This document shows positions 25,698 through 31,802 of a stretch of 32,000 bases of DNA, piece by piece. The stretch is from Dickeya dadantii NCPPB 898 (GTDB taxonomy: Bacteria > Pseudomonadota > Gammaproteobacteria > Enterobacterales > Enterobacteriaceae). Numbering within the stretch: position 1 is the stretch's first letter; each line of letters begins with the position of its first letter. Under the pieces are notes generated by a model. The model was not told the origin of the DNA. It did not search any database and saw only the letters and a list, made by a program, of their open reading frames with translations. A program made the position numbers and the translations under genes. The stretch covers positions 2,353,543 to 2,385,542 of the forward strand of contig NZ_CM001976.1 in the NCBI RefSeq assembly GCF_000406145.1. The letters are read 5' to 3'.

Positions 25698-25745
25698 TTG
25701 ACAGGCCTTAAATGTCAATGCAAAACTATACCGTACGGTTTAGTT
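25698..25745 (+). promoter_or_regulatory. candidate sigma70 promoter overlapped by a 22-bp near-palindromic operator (site A)
   Basis: TTGACA (25698-25703), an 18-nt spacer ending in TGc, then AAAACT (25722-27). The motif AACTATACCGTACGGTTTAGTT (25724-25745) has a perfect ACCGTACGGT palindrome core and AACTA/TAGTT outer arms. Confidence 0.45.
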
Positions 25746-25881: not shown

Positions 25882-26547
25882 ATGAAAGCATTCGCACGGG
25901 CCGCCCAGCCAGCCATCGTGACCCTCGCCATCTTTTTGGCCGGTTGTTCTGGTAGCCAGCAACCCTTACGCTACACCGGTATTGGTTCATCAGCCCAGTT
26001 GACCCCTAACAGCGGTGATGCATCCGACCGAATCCCCTTCAAGTACGCCGCGCCGGTTGACTGGAAAAAGTACAACAGCATTATCATTGAGCCTGTCGTG
26101 GTGTATTCAGGCAGCGACAATCAGTTTGGCGACCTGTCCGTGTCTGACAGGCAACAACTTGCCGCCTATATGCAAACAAAGTTCGAAGAGGCGCTGCGCC
26201 CACGCTTCAGGCAGGCGACAGCATCTGCGCCGGATGCTTTACGTCTGAAACTGACGCTTACCGGTGCCGAAACCACGACGCAAGTGGTAGGGACATTCAC
26301 CAAGTTCGACCTTGCCGGCGGCCCTTACAACATCGTGCAATCTATTCGTGGCAAAGAGGGCATGTTCAGCGGTTCGGTGAGTTATGCTGTCGAGATCTAC
26401 GACTCTACTTCCAATCGCTTGCTTCATGCCTATGTCGCTAAGCAATACCCGAACGCCATGAACGTTTCTGCCACCATTGGCTCATTGAGCGCGGCAGAAG
26501 TCGGGATCGATAAAGGTGCAGACGAGCTGGCCGGCATACTGAAATAA
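25882..26547 (+). CDS. lipoprotein, DUF3313-like
   Basis: 221 aa with lipobox FLAGC at residues 18-22 and AGGA 8 nt upstream of the ATG. The family name is from memory of similar roughly 220-aa lipoproteins and is not verifiable here. Confidence 0.65.
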   Translation: MKAFARAAQPAIVTLAIFLAGCSGSQQPLRYTGIGSSAQLTPNSGDASDRIPFKYAAPVDWKKYNSIIIEPVVVYSGSDNQFGDLSVSDRQQLAAYMQTKFEEALRPRFRQATASAPDALRLKLTLTGAETTTQVVGTFTKFDLAGGPYNIVQSIRGKEGMFSGSVSYAVEIYDSTSNRLLHAYVAKQYPNAMNVSATIGSLSAAEVGIDKGADELAGILK

Positions 26548-26644: not shown

Positions 26645-26679
26645 TTCCCCCCTTATCTTGCTGAGTATTGTCCACCGCG

Positions 26680-27309
26680 ATGAAAAGCTACCCGTATTTA
26701 ATCGCCTGCCCACACTGCGGTGGCGTGTATCGCCTCCGCCCGCTGGTCGGCAACGATGTCGCGCAATGTGTGCGCTGTCTGGCCATTCTTTATCGCTCCT
26801 CGTCGATGGACCCGGCACGTTTGCTTCCGCTGGCTTTTGCTTCCGCCATCACCTTTCTGATGGCTAATGCCTGGCCTGTCATGACGGTGAGTTTTCATGG
26901 ATTAACCCATAACGTGACGCTCTGGCAATCCATGTGGTCGCTTGCTCAGGGTGATACCGCCCTTCTGGCGTGGTGCGCGGTGCTGTTCCTTATTCTTGCC
27001 CCTTCTTTACAAATCATGCTGTTAACCTGGATTTTGTTGTTCGCAAGCGCCCGCCGGCGGGCACCGGGCTTTATCGCCATCATGAAAACGCTGAGGTGGT
27101 TACGCCCCTGGAACATGATGGAAGTGGGTCTGCCCGGTTTTTTGGTCGCGGCGGGGAAACTGTCCGGTCTGCTGGATGTCTCTGTCGAGCCCGGAGGGTG
27201 GTTTCTGGTGGCTTCATTGATACTGGTTTTTATCATTACCCGTCAGGAGAATCGTTGGCTGTGGGCGCTTGGCGCGACCGTTCATCACGGAAAGGCGCAT
27301 CATGCATAA
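26680..27309 (+). CDS. PqiA-domain inner-membrane protein, half 1 of a split PqiA/LetA-type subunit
   Basis: ATG 26680 (MKSYPYLIACPHCGGVY...CVRC) gives 209 aa with a CxxC...CxxC zinc-ribbon-like N-terminus followed by 4 TM spans. Confidence 0.85.
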   Translation: MKSYPYLIACPHCGGVYRLRPLVGNDVAQCVRCLAILYRSSSMDPARLLPLAFASAITFLMANAWPVMTVSFHGLTHNVTLWQSMWSLAQGDTALLAWCAVLFLILAPSLQIMLLTWILLFASARRRAPGFIAIMKTLRWLRPWNMMEVGLPGFLVAAGKLSGLLDVSVEPGGWFLVASLILVFIITRQENRWLWALGATVHHGKAHHA

Positions 27310-27922
27310 AGTGCCGTCAGCCCGTCAGATGAATGTCTGCGATTGCCCGGTTTGCGGGCTGGTTTTCGACGCACCGGCGGCGGATGACCGTAACGCCCGT
27401 TGCCCACGTTGCCACACCCGGTTTGATGCACATTCCCCAGGCAGCACCGCCCTGTCGTGGGCTCTGCTGCTTGCCGCCCTGATTTTTTACATTCCGGCCA
27501 ATACCCTACCGGTGATGCACACCAGCCAGCTCGCCAGCGGCGGCGAAAGCACGATTATGTCTGGCGTCGTCGACTTCTGGCAGCATGGCTCGTATGGCAT
27601 TGCCCTGATCATATTTGTTGCCAGCGTGGTGATCCCTTGCATGAAGTTCCTGTCCCTGATACTCCTGCTGGTCACCGCTCGTCGGAAAAGCGCTTGGGCA
27701 AGACGCGAACGCACCCGGCTCTATCGCATAACGGAATGGATCGGCCGCTGGTCCATGCTGGATGTGATTGTCGTGGCAGTGGTGTGCAGCCTGGTTCGCT
27801 TTCATTCGCTGGGCGAAGCGGAACCCCGCCCCGGCATCCTGTTTTTTGGACTGGTGGTTATCCTGACCATGCTCTCCGCCATGAGTTTCGATCCGCGTTC
27901 GATCTGGGAGGAGGAGCAATGA
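27302..27922 (+). CDS. PqiA-domain inner-membrane protein, half 2
   Basis: ATG 27302 overlaps the upstream stop by 8 nt. 206 aa with CPVCGLVF...CPRC, then TM spans, YIPANTLPVM and RWSMLDVIVVA strings typical of PqiA repeats. Confidence 0.85.
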   Translation: MHKVPSARQMNVCDCPVCGLVFDAPAADDRNARCPRCHTRFDAHSPGSTALSWALLLAALIFYIPANTLPVMHTSQLASGGESTIMSGVVDFWQHGSYGIALIIFVASVVIPCMKFLSLILLLVTARRKSAWARRERTRLYRITEWIGRWSMLDVIVVAVVCSLVRFHSLGEAEPRPGILFFGLVVILTMLSAMSFDPRSIWEEEQ

Positions 27923-29589
27923 ATCCGATGTTACCGGGTGAGATCACCGCCATTCGCCGCAGCTGGCGTCATGCCGCTATCTGGTTCGTCCCGGTTATCG
28001 CGCTGGCGATCAGCCTCGCTATGCTGGTTCAGTCTCGCCTGTCCGCCGGTCCTGACATCACCCTTTCCTTTCGCAGTGCGACAGGGCTTGAAGCCGGTAA
28101 AACCACGGTTAAATACAAAGACGTCACGGTCGGAATAGTAAAAGATATCGTTATTAACGATGACGGTTCCCGTGTTCTGGTCAGGGTGCAACTGAACAAA
28201 AGCGCAGAGAATCTGGCGCGCAGCGGCTCACGGTTTTGGGTAGTCAGGCCACGCGTGGGGATGAGCGGCGTCAGCGGCATTGATACCCTGTTATCCGGCG
28301 CCTATATCGGCGTGGATAAAGGCTATTCATCGGAAACCCGGCGCGAATTTACCGGTCTGGAAACCCCGCCCGCCATTATCAATGACATGCCAGGGAGCCA
28401 TTTTGTCATCGACGCCGACGATTTGGGGTCGTTGGATATCGGCTCGCCGATTTACTACCGCCGGGTACAGGTGGGACGTCTTGCTTCTTATCATCTGAAA
28501 GAAGACGGCCGTGGCGTCAGTTTACAGGTTTTCATCGATGCGCCTTATGACCGACTGGTGCAGCCTGACACCCGTTTCTGGAATGTCAGCGGCGTCGACC
28601 TATCCGTCGGTGCCAACGGCTTTCGCCTGAAAACGCAGACCGTGGCTGCGGTGCTGGCCGGCGGCATCGCGTTTGCCACCCCGGAGAGCAATAAAGATAG
28701 CGATAAAACGCCGGCGATTAACTCCCCCGTCAGCTATCGATTGGCACCGGATCAGGAGTCCGCCATGTCGGCGCCGGATGGGCAGGCGATTCCATTCCGG
28801 CTTCGGTTTGAACGTGCGTTACATGGGCTGGACATCGGCGCGCCGGTAGAATTTTCCAGCGTCACCATTGGTCGGGTTACGGCTATCACGCTGGATTATA
28901 ATCCCACTGGCTATCGTTTCCCGACGATCGTGGATGTTGAGGTCTACCCCGCTCGTCTGGGAAATTTGCTGGATAAACTGCCCGGTTCATCGCCATCTGA
29001 ATCCCCTTCGCCCGCAGAAACAGTGAACAAAGCCGCCCTGTTCACCCGTGACCTTGTCGCCCACGGCCTGCGGGCCCAGGCGGTTCCCGGCAACCTGTTG
29101 ACCGGGCAACTGTATGTTTCATTCGATTTTGTGCCTGATGCCCCCAACGTCCGCTTTAATCCAAACGCCCGCCCCATCGAATTACCGACCGTCAGCGGCG
29201 GGCTGGATAAACTGCAAGCGCAATTGGGCGGTATCGTCGCCAAAGTTAACAACATGCCGCTGGAGTCTATCGGCAATAACCTGAACAACACCCTGGTTGA
29301 ATTGAACAAGACGCTGCGGTTGGTCAATAACCAGACCTTGCCGACCGCCAACAGCCTGATGAAACAAACGCAACTGACGACGGAAAACGCCCAGGAACTC
29401 ATCGCGGAAGACTCGCCATTGCTGATTCATTTCACTCAGACGTTACAGGAAGCAAGCCGGACGCTGCGCACCCTACGCGAGTTTACGGAGCAACTGGAGC
29501 GTAACCCGGAGTCGCTACTGCGTGGACGCTCATCGGATTCAGCCCCTAACGCAGCGGATGACCGTTCTGCTTCCCCCAAAGGAAAATAG
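27919..29589 (+). CDS. multi-MCE-domain intermembrane transport protein (PqiB-like)
   Basis: True start is ATG 27919 (ATGA overlap with the upstream stop, GGAGGAGG SD), giving 556 aa. It has an N-terminal TM (AAIWFVPVIALAISLAMLV), repeated MCE-type segments (GLEAGKTTVKYKDVTVGIV.., GSLDIGSPIYYRRVQVGRL.., HGLDIGAPVEFSSVTIGRV..) and a long C-terminal helical region. Confidence 0.88.
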   Translation: MNPMLPGEITAIRRSWRHAAIWFVPVIALAISLAMLVQSRLSAGPDITLSFRSATGLEAGKTTVKYKDVTVGIVKDIVINDDGSRVLVRVQLNKSAENLARSGSRFWVVRPRVGMSGVSGIDTLLSGAYIGVDKGYSSETRREFTGLETPPAIINDMPGSHFVIDADDLGSLDIGSPIYYRRVQVGRLASYHLKEDGRGVSLQVFIDAPYDRLVQPDTRFWNVSGVDLSVGANGFRLKTQTVAAVLAGGIAFATPESNKDSDKTPAINSPVSYRLAPDQESAMSAPDGQAIPFRLRFERALHGLDIGAPVEFSSVTIGRVTAITLDYNPTGYRFPTIVDVEVYPARLGNLLDKLPGSSPSESPSPAETVNKAALFTRDLVAHGLRAQAVPGNLLTGQLYVSFDFVPDAPNVRFNPNARPIELPTVSGGLDKLQAQLGGIVAKVNNMPLESIGNNLNNTLVELNKTLRLVNNQTLPTANSLMKQTQLTTENAQELIAEDSPLLIHFTQTLQEASRTLRTLREFTEQLERNPESLLRGRSSDSAPNAADDRSASPKGK

Positions 29590-29591
29590 CC

Positions 29592-30194
29592 ATGAGATTG
29601 ATACTGCCGCTGCTCACTGTCATTGTGGCGCTGACGCTACCGGCCTGCCGCTCCCCGCAGGTTCGCTACCATACGCTACTTCCCCCGACCGCCGGTGCGG
29701 TATCGCCCCCGGCGCCATTCGCGATTGAGGTATTACCGGTCGATGTACCGGCGCAGGTGGACCGACAGCAGGTGGTGATTCGCACTGGTCAGGACGGCGC
29801 CATGATCCTTGACGGCGATCGCTGGCTGAGTCCGCTAAGCGATGAGATTCACACGGCGCTGTCATCACTGCTGGCTCAGCGGCCGGGGGCCTCTAATGCA
29901 TCTGGGCAGCCGCTGCCGCGCGATATCCCTGTACTGCGGGTCCGCATGCAGATTCGGCGTTTTGACAGCTGGCCCGGTCAGTTCGTCTCGCTCGACGCCG
30001 ACTGGAGCCTGACCGCCAAAAGCGGGGATAAGCACCTCAAACTGTCTTGCCGCAGCCAGTTGACGGAAAGCGCCGCCGGCGATCTCACGCAACTGTTTTC
30101 TGCCTGGCAGAAGATTATTGAGCGAGTCGCGACACAGATGGCGGAAACCGCCCGGCAATGGCAACAAGATGGGAATATGGCGTGTCAATCGTGA
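29592..30194 (+). CDS. PqiC-like (DUF330) outer-membrane lipoprotein
   Basis: 200 aa with lipobox LPAC, then RYHTLLP and a DRWLSPL-type string, as in ABC-type transport auxiliary/PqiC lipoproteins. It starts 2 nt after the pqiB-like stop. Confidence 0.8.
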   Translation: MRLILPLLTVIVALTLPACRSPQVRYHTLLPPTAGAVSPPAPFAIEVLPVDVPAQVDRQQVVIRTGQDGAMILDGDRWLSPLSDEIHTALSSLLAQRPGASNASGQPLPRDIPVLRVRMQIRRFDSWPGQFVSLDADWSLTAKSGDKHLKLSCRSQLTESAAGDLTQLFSAWQKIIERVATQMAETARQWQQDGNMACQS

Positions 30195-30219: not shown

Positions 30220-30251
30220 CAGAGGATACGTCGATCAGAGGATACGCCGAT
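30220..30251. repeat. tandem 2 x 16 bp repeat (CAGAGGATACGYCGAT)
   Basis: 30220-30235 CAGAGGATACGTCGAT and 30236-30251 CAGAGGATACGCCGAT differ at one position. Confidence 0.85.
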
Positions 30252-30279
30252 GCAGCGATAGCTGGTGTTTCCTGAAGAA

Positions 30280-30307
30280 GAGCCAGTTCGGTCACCCGAC
30301 CTGGCTC
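30280..30307. terminator. bidirectional hairpin terminator between the pqi-like operon and the micro-ORF operon
   Basis: GAGCCAGTTCGG-tcac-CCGACCTGGCTC (12-bp stem, one mismatch). On the minus strand it is followed by TTCTTC, on the plus strand by CTGTTTC. Confidence 0.6.
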
Positions 30308-30332
30308 CTGTTTCACGCCCAGAGGCGGCGCG

Positions 30333-30413
30333 CTAAATATGACTGCCGATAGACAGACAACCGTTCAGGATCATGGCGGCCATGACGATACAAACCAGCC
30401 CAATAATTCTCAT
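30333..30413 (-). CDS. micro-ORF 2: 26-aa lipobox peptide MRIIGLVCIVMAAMILNGCLSIGSHI
   Basis: Hand translation. GAGGAAAG lies 5 nt upstream of the ATG. Basic residue, hydrophobic core and LNGC lipobox are present. The predicted mature part is only 8 residues. Not in the ORF track (too short). Confidence 0.4.
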   Translation of the reverse strand: MRIIGLVCIVMAAMILNGCLSIGSHI

Positions 30414-30452
30414 GTTCTTTCCTCACTCGTAACCGAATAAGATGGCTTCCCC

Positions 30453-30524
30453 CTAAAACAGGGAGACACAACCGGTCAGCATACAGACAGCCGCAGCAAA
30501 CCCTGCCAACGCCAGAATTTTCAT
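30453..30524 (-). CDS. micro-ORF 1: 23-aa lipobox peptide MKILALAGFAAAVCMLTGCVSLF
   Basis: Hand translation. GGTGGAG lies directly upstream of the ATG. It has an LTGC lipobox, and the predicted mature part is only 5 residues. It looks paralogous in design to micro-ORF 2. Confidence 0.4.
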   Translation of the reverse strand: MKILALAGFAAAVCMLTGCVSLF

Positions 30525-30538
30525 ACTCCACCCTCAAT

Positions 30539-30584
30539 AAATAAACTGTACGGTTTAGTTTATATAAAGAAAAAACACTGTCAA
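30539..30584 (-). promoter_or_regulatory. strong sigma70-like promoter overlapped by the 22-bp motif (site B)
   Basis: Minus strand: TTGACA (30579-30584), a 16-nt spacer, then TAAACT (30557-30562). The motif on the minus strand is AACTAAACCGTACAGTTTATTT (30539-30560), 19/22 identical to site A and beginning inside the -10 hexamer just as at site A. Confidence 0.5.
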
Positions 30585-30734: not shown

Positions 30735-31361
30735 TCATTTCCCTGCCTGCGGGGATGCCCCATGCAGGAAAAGCTGGACACCGTTTCTCACCATTTCTTT
30801 GACGCGATCGGTCGAATAATCAGGCAGTTCACGCTGCAACAGCACCGCATCCGCTTCGGCTTTGACCAGCGACGTAAACTGCATGGCTCTCAGCATGGGA
30901 TCTGCCGGAGCCAGTTCGCCGGTTTGCATAGCCTCGGCCATGAGATCGGCCAACCTGGCCATGCTCTCTTTCGGCCCCGACCCCTGAAACAAGGCACCGA
31001 TATCTGAATGGCCCGCCTCGCCAACCACAATGCGATAAATTTGCAAAGCCGGGTTGCCACCGGTCAGAACATGCATCATTTTTTCACCAAAACGCGTCAA
31101 CTTGATCTCCAGAGAACGCTGCCCGTCTTCCGGCATGTCGAGCTCCGCCGCCGCGTCCGTCAAAAAGCGCGTACTGTAGGTGCGTACAACCGTCTCAAAC
31201 AACGCTTCCTTTGAGGGAAAGTAGTTATAGAGCGTCGCCTTCGACCCCCCTGCTCGTTTAGCCACCTCATTCATGGACGCCCGTTCGTATCCCGTTTCCT
31301 GAAACAATTGGGCGGCGGCATCGATAATGGCCTGCCGTTTTTCCTCAGTCAGTGTTCGCAT
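30735..31361 (-). CDS. TetR/AcrR-family transcriptional regulator
   Basis: 208 aa. N-terminal HTH: KRQAIIDAAAQLFQETGYERASMNEVAKRAGGSKATLYNYFPSKEALF. Confidence 0.9.
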   Translation of the reverse strand: MRTLTEEKRQAIIDAAAQLFQETGYERASMNEVAKRAGGSKATLYNYFPSKEALFETVVRTYSTRFLTDAAAELDMPEDGQRSLEIKLTRFGEKMMHVLTGGNPALQIYRIVVGEAGHSDIGALFQGSGPKESMARLADLMAEAMQTGELAPADPMLRAMQFTSLVKAEADAVLLQRELPDYSTDRVKEMVRNGVQLFLHGASPQAGK

Positions 31362-31415: not shown

Positions 31416-31437
31416 ACCGGACAGTACAGTTTAATTA
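31416..31437. promoter_or_regulatory. degenerate third copy of the 22-bp motif (site C) upstream of the TetR gene
   Basis: AACCGGACAGTACAGTTTAATT is 16/22 identical to site A. On the minus strand it contains TAAACT (31429-31434), 68 nt upstream of the TetR ATG. An 8-bp inverted repeat CTGTCCGG (31379-31386) / CCGGACAG (31418-31425) flanks this region. Confidence 0.3.
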
Positions 31438-31802
31438 TGTCGCAGTATGCCACATTCCGGCCCCCCAAGAAACCGCGCGGCGTTGACCATCTCCCGTATG
31501 TGTAAGTCGAGTTTCGGTAACAGCGCGCCCAGCAGTTAAAATCGTACATTTGTATTAAAATAGATATTTAAGTCCGTAAAATTAAATTTTATGAAAATAA
31601 ATAAGAATTAAATTCTGAATATAAAATCATAAATGGTTTTTTGATCCAAAAGTTCATTCTGTTTTTTTGAGCAAGATTGTCAAATCCACGCTATTCTCTT
31701 CTCACTGCCAGCAAGGATACGATGCAGGCCGGATTACGGAACGCCCGATATCGCCCGCTGTCATCGTGGGCTGGCATTCCCGCTGACGCCCGGAGAGGAA
31801 CC

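Follow-up and report, generated by a model that had tools for sequence, protein, structure and literature searches.

A candidate TetR-repressed operon for two paralogous ultra-short prolipoproteins in Dickeya dadantii and other Enterobacterales

The entericidins EcnA and EcnB of Escherichia coli are encoded by two adjacent paralogous genes for very small lipoproteins. A similar arrangement is present in Dickeya dadantii NCPPB 898, in a 32,000-nucleotide stretch of contig NZ_CM001976.1 (positions 2,353,543 to 2,385,542; the window hereafter), where two minus-strand micro-open reading frames (micro-ORFs), termed ORF1 and ORF2, encode peptides of 23 and 26 residues that each carry a lipobox. Mature entericidins are amphipathic helices of about 21-27 residues under RpoS and EnvZ/OmpR control, whereas the predicted mature parts of the pair comprise 5 and 8 residues (CVSLF and CLSIGSHI) and control by a TetR-family repressor is proposed. 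The 24-residue N-terminal peptide of Braun's lipoprotein (Lpp) resembles ORF1 in consisting of a signal peptide, a lipobox and four residues beyond the Cys; it is, however, an artificial truncation of a 78-residue protein, whereas the micro-ORFs are natural, conserved short genes. Pam3CSK4, FSL-1 and MALP-2 (a few residues after an acylated Cys) have the chemical form predicted for the mature products of the pair, but these molecules are synthetic or are fragments of larger lipoproteins and are not gene-encoded at that length.

Other described systems share the regulation or the genetic organization of the pair. In NalC-ArmR, and in AcrZ with AcrAB, one repressor governs both a small peptide and an envelope system, and NalC is among the closest solved relatives of the TetR protein of the window. 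ArmR is nevertheless cytoplasmic and AcrZ is an unlipidated transmembrane helix, and both lack a lipobox. The PEP3458 family of Leptotrichia, like the pair, consists of unannotated small lipobox ORFs that occur in arrays and vary mainly in the signal peptide; unlike the pair, its ORFs are 48-81 residues long, encode folded Cys-rich mature domains and belong to a different phylum. Small lipoproteins and lipobox microproteins are therefore already known, and what appears to be new, judging from the predicted cleavage sites, is the conservation of mature parts of five and eight residues. To our knowledge, no lipoprotein with a conserved mature part of 5-8 residues has been described.

The favored interpretation, to which we assign a probability of roughly 55%, is a bicistronic, TetR-repressed operon for two paralogous ultra-short prolipoproteins. 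Both micro-ORFs and their Shine-Dalgarno sites lie where an earlier reading, made from the DNA letters without database searches (the sequence-only reading), had placed them (Table 1). The lipobox test was of the PROSITE PS51257 type, with Lys or Arg in the first seven residues, an uncharged core and the Cys at position 15-35. ORF1 has a basic residue at K2 and the lipobox LTG-C, with the Cys at position 19, which matches the core pattern [LVI][ASTVI][GAS]C. ORF2 has a basic residue at R2 and the lipobox LNG-C, which departs from the pattern solely through the Asn at position -2; the earlier description of both lipoboxes as canonical thus holds for ORF1 and not for ORF2. The two ORFs are paralogous, with a common 20-nt repeat spanning both lipoboxes, as the duplication proposed in the same reading implied. 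Markov-shuffled 32-kb sequences contain about 1.3 lipobox micro-ORFs per window (only 0.11 with a Shine-Dalgarno site). Lipobox micro-ORFs alone are therefore not rare, and the case rests on comparative data.

The pair, in the same order and together with its promoter, operator and terminator, is found in about 25 independent loci from at least six genera and from metagenomes. ORF1 always lies 5' of ORF2, and every pair locus has the operator-bearing promoter before the pair and a GC hairpin after it. Both frames, their lengths (23-25 residues for ORF1, 26 for ORF2) and their stop positions are kept throughout these loci, and the Shine-Dalgarno sites are conserved in related loci. The pentapeptide CVSLF is identical in 18 of 19 ORF1 orthologues (the exception, CVSLL, is in Dickeya chrysanthemi) although its codons vary across them (four for Val, three for Ser, three for Leu). 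In the 18 orthologues from loci that bear the pair (type A), ORF2 is always 26 residues long with its Cys at position 19, and ends in CL[ST]IG[SG][HN][IL]. Every invariant residue is encoded by several synonymous codons, and variation falls chiefly at synonymous sites. All intact copies keep the lipobox Cys, the sole copy without it being a disrupted metagenomic one. Neither paralogue varies at Leu(-3), Gly(-1) or Cys(+1), and Ser, Thr or Asn occupies position -2 (Ser or Thr in all ORF2 orthologues outside the D. dadantii group). The lipobox core pattern is matched by 18 of 19 ORF1 and 18 of 20 ORF2 orthologues, with the Cys at position 19 or 21, and Lys or Arg occurs among the first seven residues in 18/19 and 19/20, respectively.

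The substitution pattern differs sharply between parts of the peptides. Nei-Gojobori counts over 11 representative loci give a pS of 0.74 and a pN of 0.044 for the 13 post-Cys codons (dN/dS about 0.014), 0.68 and 0.193 for the Leu-x-Gly of the lipobox (dN/dS 0.13), and 0.62 and 0.477 for the hydrophobic cores (dN/dS 0.57); the pairwise comparisons are non-independent and dS is saturated, so the ratios are rough, although their direction is unambiguous. Codon-level selection of this kind implies that the micro-ORFs are translated, and that selection acts on the lipobox and the post-Cys residues rather than on the signal-peptide core. The comparative sequence evidence therefore supports the micro-ORFs as translated, real genes. 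The sequence-only reading had proposed to judge the pair by conservation, synteny and dN/dS, and the frames and the lipobox Cys are indeed kept in distant relatives.

Carriers of the pair include Dickeya, Erwinia, Pantoea, Klebsiella and Enterobacter plasmids, a Gibbsiella-like contig and metagenomes. The two peptides recur in six Dickeya records, where one substitution, in one of the hydrophobic cores, is the only difference. A Klebsiella pneumoniae plasmid with the same layout encodes MKIVMLLSLMSSVLCLSGCVSLF and MKIFGLLCVITTVVMLSGCLSIGGHL, and is far more distant from the window (67% DNA identity in tetR, 47% protein identity in PqiC). In relatives' loci generally, the flanking proteins are 46-70% identical to those of the window, with PqiC down to 46-52%. 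The species-level genome scan located the pair in Erwinia typographi, and plasmid searches located it on nine plasmids: three from Pantoea agglomerans, two from K. pneumoniae, and one each from Pantoea sp., P. vagans, Erwinia billingiae and K. michiganensis. When metagenomes were scanned with the ORF2 alignment as seed, 11 loci with an intact ORF2 emerged, ten of them with the full pair (the remaining locus, L070, is cut inside ORF1), and DUF3313 homologues led to the pair in the Gibbsiella-like contig, Enterobacter cloacae and D. chrysanthemi. The locus and its Klebsiella copy had no match in complete E. coli genomes, and the pair had none among viral contigs.

The decayed copy, on metagenomic contig Ga0207696_1000607 (L071 4900-5081), has the ORF1 lipobox Cys replaced by Tyr, a Glu in the ORF1 core and an Asp in the ORF2 core; no TetR gene, DUF3313 gene or recognizable promoter lies nearby. 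Another apparent match, L072, is a chance resemblance to the N terminus of an ordinary lipoprotein and is not a copy of the pair.

The tetR gene lies directly 5' of the pair in all 17 intact type-A loci that cover that flank. Where the flank is covered, a gene for a DUF3313 lipoprotein is always near a type-A pair, either within about 2.5 kb or at the head of a convergent operon, and DUF3313 is the only non-regulatory gene consistently linked to, and probably co-regulated with, the pair. The Pqi genes are missing from the pair loci of Pantoea, E. billingiae, Enterobacter and D. chrysanthemi Ech1591, and in D. dadantii 3937 pqiC carries a +1 frameshift beside intact micro-ORFs. Conversely, many Enterobacterales have a DUF3313-pqi operon convergent with tetR in which the PqiC and TetR genes abut and the micro-ORFs are missing (Klebsiella spp., Raoultella, Pectobacterium, Phytobacter, Brenneria goodwinii and D. 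oryzae). Because Pqi is inconstant and micro-ORF-free loci exist, the pair is best described as an accessory cassette of the TetR/DUF3313 regulon that has been repeatedly gained and lost. The suggestion that the micro-ORFs are partners of the adjacent MCE system therefore fits their co-location in the window; it does not fit the wider distribution, in which the pair travels with TetR and DUF3313 and not with Pqi.

A longer relative of the pair occurs in Serratia plymuthica (L089 10829-11255) and Klebsiella aerogenes (L091 6804-7189). In this variant architecture tetR is divergent from the DUF3313-pqi operon, and the operator-bearing promoter lies 3' of pqiC on the same strand. The promoter is followed by a 25-residue ORF, MKKWVLLGCGIASVFLLSGC followed by LSIGW (lipobox LLSGC; six-residue mature part CLSIGW), then by a hairpin, and then by the gene for a 59-62-residue lipoprotein (P0121, P0122) that reads LLSGC-ISLGKHS at its lipobox and continues for about 40 further residues as a polar extension in which Tyr, Asp, Arg and His are abundant. 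The latter protein resembles the pair in its slot at the TetR/DUF3313/pqi locus, and its LLSGC-ISLG resembles the LxGC-VSLF of ORF1; it differs from the pair in the polar extension. Only two clusters of it are present in a 5.8-billion-cluster database. There are two paralogue types, C[VI]SL... and CLSIG..., and what both conserve is the lipobox with the next four or five residues. Since a signal peptide here precedes an exported polar domain, the long form is an ordinary lipoprotein, and the simplest assumption for the short forms is accordingly that they too are processed as lipoproteins. One source labels the longer homologue YceK/YidQ; this label was rejected, as the 59-residue protein scores 12.9 bits (E = 0.098) against NF007555, whose cut-off is 123, and the micro-ORFs have no match to this NCBIfam model.

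The promoter and the overlapping palindrome are located where the sequence-only reading had put them. A consensus scan gives the promoter 10 of 12 consensus matches, and its -35 and -10 elements are kept in 18 related loci. The operator core TAAACCGTACAGTTTA starts within the -10 element, and its left extension gives the TAAACT-N9-AGTTTA palindrome, earlier described as a 22-bp operator. The motif TAAACYGTACRGTTTA occurs without mismatch at 30542-30557, and the window holds three matches in total against 0.18 expected by chance; a TetR_N protein adjoins target promoters, three in the window, that share the palindrome as a putative operator. The degenerate copy 5' of tetR is 89% complementary to the micro-ORF operator, and autoregulation of tetR is probable on the strength of this site. 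The motif occupies the same promoter position in every pair-carrying locus, and most pair-bearing loci have operators at both the micro-ORF and the DUF3313 promoters, with a more degenerate form upstream of tetR.

The transcript is predicted to end at a GC-rich hairpin (-34 kcal/mol in an 81-nt context, z = -2.6) at the place given earlier for a strong terminator. In this genome its U-tract is weak (UUCUUC), and a simple terminator scan makes no call there; relatives have non-homologous GC hairpins and T-runs at the equivalent place after the pair. The description of the pair as one operator-controlled, terminator-bounded unit agrees with its conservation as such, and as real genes, in relatives. 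According to the accessible part of the D. dadantii 3937 transcript map (PMC9239193, Table S1), the tetR transcript ends at 2423107, before the micro-ORF promoter is reached, as would suit a separate transcription unit. The same part of the map calls an intrinsic terminator, assigned by "Both" predictors, at CP002038.1 2422966-2423006 (window 30527-30567). These positions hold the operator palindrome and a T-rich flank, and are more likely a repressor site at a promoter.

The mechanism proposed for the operon is as follows. As the architecture suggests, TetR would bind at the DUF3313(-pqi) promoter, at the palindrome that covers the transcription start and -10 element of the micro-ORF operon and, probably, at the promoter of tetR itself; a hydrophobic inducer, possibly a plant phenolic, would relieve repression. 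The 23- and 26-residue peptides would then insert in the inner membrane with the N terminus in and the C terminus out. Peptides shorter than the ribosome exit tunnel cannot be targeted co-translationally, so insertion would have to be independent of that route. Given the invariant lipobox, Lgt would be expected to add diacylglycerol to Cys19, LspA to cleave before the Cys and Lnt to N-acylate it, giving triacyl-CVSLF and triacyl-CLSIGSHI. Lgt lipidates a synthetic 24-residue Lpp peptide in vitro, and Lnt accepts the short lipopeptide FSL-1 (PMC8048626). The Lol pathway should send both lipopeptides to the inner leaflet of the outer membrane, since residue +2 is Val or Leu and not Asp, the enterobacterial Lol-avoidance signal. 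There they might act beside the outer-membrane lipoprotein DUF3313 and, where present, the Pqi-like lipid transporter, as a conjectural accessory in envelope or lipid homeostasis. A further and decidedly unlikely extension is that the triacylated penta- and octapeptides are a ribosomal route to lipid-like molecules produced when TetR senses a hydrophobic and possibly plant-derived compound, serving as dedicated ligands, cargo or membrane-remodeling agents for a PelC-like DUF3313 ring with or without an MCE tunnel.

If the pair is processed as predicted, its products would be by far the shortest natural lipoproteins known to us, effectively gene-encoded lipids, and they would raise the question of the minimum in vivo substrate of Lgt, LspA, Lnt and the Lol pathway. 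The triacylated-peptide route, if correct, would add a new class of gene-encoded lipopeptides to the Gram-negative envelope. The pair also offers a handle on an uncharacterized DUF3313 and TetR regulon that includes a second Pqi-like MCE system, in a host (D. dadantii 3937) that is a genetically tractable plant pathogen. By strain name, the large K. pneumoniae plasmids that carry the pair also carry carbapenemase genes.

Several points weigh against the prolipoprotein reading. The Asn at -2 of the window ORF2 lipobox is atypical and lies outside the PROSITE-type pattern, and an N-terminal Lys or Arg is missing from one copy of each ORF. Each peptide has about 21 contiguous hydrophobic residues and could equally be an unprocessed single-pass membrane helix; the conserved S/T-G-C-x-S can likewise be read as a small-xxx-small helix-packing motif. 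Mature parts of only 5-8 residues are unable to fold, and any partner-binding role is conjecture. The repeated loss of the pair from otherwise identical loci makes it dispensable for the DUF3313/Pqi system. Finally, the accessible part of the 3937 transcript map contains no transcription start or unit for the micro-ORFs, a silence to be expected if the operon is under repression; the map, moreover, was built around annotated genes.

The strongest rival follows from the hydrophobic length of the peptides: unprocessed single-pass inner-membrane micro-proteins, with a helix of about 21 residues, might modulate a larger membrane protein, as AcrZ, MgrB and KdpF do, such as PqiA or another product of the TetR regulon, with the conserved C-terminal S/T-G-C-x-S as the contact face, the likeness to a lipobox being incidental. 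The length suits a transmembrane span, the spacing of S/T17 and S21 suits the packing motif, and the peptides are co-regulated with membrane proteins. However, the residues held invariant in both paralogues (Leu at -3, Gly at -1, Cys at +1, with S, T or N at -2) are exactly those of a lipobox, the motif is common to the 59-62-residue homologue whose polar mature part must be exported as a lipoprotein, and many pair loci have no Pqi; this rival is accordingly judged unlikely. Mini lysis or vesiculation lipoproteins of the BRP/Kil type, which would perturb the outer membrane when derepressed (for example through phospholipase A activation or vesicle release), would explain why a near-consensus promoter is tightly repressed by TetR. 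Small lipoprotein genes under a strong operator-occluded promoter, the often plasmid-borne state of the pair and the envelope-lipid theme of the regulon (the Pqi-like MCE system; PagP beside a TetR homologue in Pantoea At-9b) point the same way. Yet BRP activity requires a mature part of about 28 residues, the pair is stably chromosomal in Dickeya, and no bacteriocin or SOS-type promoter is linked to it. Pfam and NCBIfam scans of both peptides returned sub-threshold signal-peptide noise only, and hence no colicin lysis, Kil or entericidin model, and the neighbors are TetR, DUF3313 and pqi genes; a lysis function is quite improbable.

An exported signal or ligand is a very improbable reading. 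In this reading, lipidated peptides or cleaved signal peptides leave the cell and are sensed by other cells or by a plant or animal host, after the model of Gram-positive lipoprotein-signal-peptide pheromones or of TLR2-type lipopeptide agonists. The carriers are plant- and host-associated bacteria, and immunomodulatory lipobox microproteins have been described in Leptotrichia (bioRxiv 10.64898/2026.08.11.744246). A released signal-peptide pheromone of the cAD1 type, as the sequence-only reading had suggested, is nonetheless unlikely, since the signal-peptide core diverges freely and is the least conserved part of the precursor (dN/dS 0.57 against 0.014 after the Cys). Moreover, no receptor, exporter or processing gene beyond TetR and DUF3313 is conserved in linkage, and TetR regulators sense small molecules rather than peptides. 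A pair without function (ORFs arisen by chance, 5' ends of decayed lipoprotein genes, or ORFs that merely happen to lie in a non-coding RNA) would agree with the longer homologue in Serratia and K. aerogenes, with the lack of annotation everywhere and with the one decayed copy. The remnant idea had been offered earlier as an alternative and is contradicted by the post-Cys dN/dS: variation there is mostly synonymous, saturated dS excludes recent horizontal copying, and the truly decayed copy, L071, looks quite different. Together with frames, lengths and stops kept in about 25 loci, conserved Shine-Dalgarno sites and the absence of an Rfam match, this leaves a non-functional pair barely credible.

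The pair is invisible to current annotation. No same-strand annotation covers it in the records examined: no gene is called at the pair in Dickeya chromosomal records, and nine PLSDB plasmids have no same-strand feature over it (their gene table is incomplete). Exact look-up of four peptide sequences in a collection of 15 billion proteins found none of them, and a homologue search with a concatenated 49-column alignment returned nothing at E <= 10, partly because gene callers rarely predict ORFs below 30 residues. Literature searches for CVSLF, CLSIGSH, SGCLSIG and GCISLGKH gave no relevant paper. Rfam has nothing relevant on either strand of the locus, where control is apparently by a protein repressor. 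Type I toxin peptides (Ibs, Ldr, TisB, ShoB and similar) are likewise small and hydrophobic but are paired with a cis- or trans-encoded antisense RNA antitoxin, and at this locus an antisense RNA of a kind not yet described is conceivable. On E. billingiae plasmid pEB170 (L067 2167-2409), an 80-residue "hypothetical protein" (WP_013199842.1) is annotated antisense over ORF2 and the terminator, and is probably a mis-annotation caused by the unrecognized micro-ORFs. In the window, a 103-residue ORF in another frame (30624-30313) overlaps the pair; it is not conserved, and the codon pattern favors the micro-ORF frame. Readings of the peptide C termini as ligands of PDZ proteases or as BAM beta-signals were set aside, because the residue register misfits the known YxF and alternating-hydrophobic patterns.

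Table 1. Features of the micro-ORF locus and neighboring genes in the window (position 1 is the first nucleotide of the window)
Feature	Position	Strand	Description
Sigma-70-type promoter	30584-30557	-	-35 TTGACA 30584-30579, 16-nt spacer, -10 TAAACT 30562-30557
Palindromic TetR-type operator TAAACT-N9-AGTTTA	30542-30562	.	Over -10 and expected transcription start
ORF1 Shine-Dalgarno GGAG	30529-30526	-	Four bases 5' of ATG1
Micro-ORF 1 (ORF1)	30524-30453	-	23 residues, MKILALAGFAAAVCMLTGCVSLF = MKILALAGFAAAVCMLTG + post-cleavage CVSLF (predicted)
ORF2 Shine-Dalgarno GAGGA	30424-30420	-	Seven bases 5' of ATG2
Micro-ORF 2 (ORF2)	30413-30333	-	26 residues, MRIIGLVCIVMAAMILNGCLSIGSHI = MRIIGLVCIVMAAMILNG + post-cleavage CLSIGSHI (predicted)
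GC-rich hairpin	30275-30312	-	3' of ORF2, predicted end of micro-ORF transcript
TetR-family repressor gene	30735-31361	-	TetR_N + TetR_C_7 (Pfam); directly 5' of the pair
Degenerate operator copy	31418-31438	.	Upstream of tetR
Operator copy TATACCGTACGGTTTA	25727-25742	.	One mismatch; upstream of DUF3313/pqi operon
DUF3313 lipoprotein gene	25882-26547	+	First gene of "pqi" operon, not pqiA; operator upstream
Pqi-like MCE system	26668-30194	+	Convergent with the micro-ORFs; optional neighbor
Split PqiA, N-terminal half	26668-27309	+	Overlaps the ORF of the C-terminal half
Split PqiA, C-terminal half	27269-27922	+	Overlaps the ORF of the N-terminal half
PqiB-like protein	27922-29589	+	Three MlaD domains
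PqiC-like lipoprotein	29592-30194	+	

The window TetR is identical to a protein of D. dadantii 3937 (CP002038.1), a chromosome in which tetR has the locus tag Dda3937_04333 and the pair occupies roughly 2,422,770-2,422,961 (minus strand). Its closest solved relative is FrrA of Bradyrhizobium, crystallized with a flavonoid, followed by NalC and AefR; at about 1e-25, the likeness to FrrA offers only a lead toward a hydrophobic or plant-derived inducer. The AF2 model of DUF3313 (pLDDT 74, pTM 0.68) best matches the fold of PelC and, more weakly, those of XCC0632/DUF330, LptE, CsgG and E. coli PqiC, with TM-scores of 0.35-0.57. These are outer-membrane lipoproteins that form or join rings, PelC being dodecameric. 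A literature search found no functional study of DUF3313 or of the Dda3937 locus tags.

The PqiA split into two ORFs is conserved in all of about 60 related loci, and therefore represents the usual form of this Pqi paralogue, not a frameshift. The pqiC gene of D. dadantii 3937 and of one metagenomic contig (loci L083 and L082) has a 1-nt G insertion equivalent to window position 29728, which shifts the frame after about 46 codons and gives gene calls of 166 residues or of 130 + 73 residues; the adjacent micro-ORFs are identical. Either a true pseudogene or an error in sequencing could explain the frameshift. The interval from pqiC to the hairpin of the micro-ORFs contains, at window positions 30220-30251, a 16-nt direct repeat in tandem (CAGAGGATACGTCGAT / CAGAGGATACGCCGAT), in a region that is length-polymorphic across Dickeya strains, with indels totaling about 16 nt in L082 and L083.

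Upstream of tetR, window positions 31550-31700 are markedly AT-rich. In Dickeya records L081-L086 a second, different TetR gene (TetR_C_31) is called about 440 bp past tetR, and in the window this gene probably runs off the end. In Brenneria goodwinii and the Gibbsiella-like contig (L087, L088; 7215-7967), a MipA/OmpV-family outer-membrane protein gene lies between DUF3313 and pqiA and is a further envelope component recruited to the DUF3313-pqi operon. A plasmid of Pantoea sp. At-9b (L001 1352-2442) carries a TetR homologue with 70% amino acid identity and an operator-like site upstream, without micro-ORFs behind it. This gene is followed by a BhsA/YdgH-like gene, a 48-residue hypothetical gene and pagP (lipid A palmitoyltransferase), whose presence suggests that outer-membrane lipids are a theme of this TetR clade.

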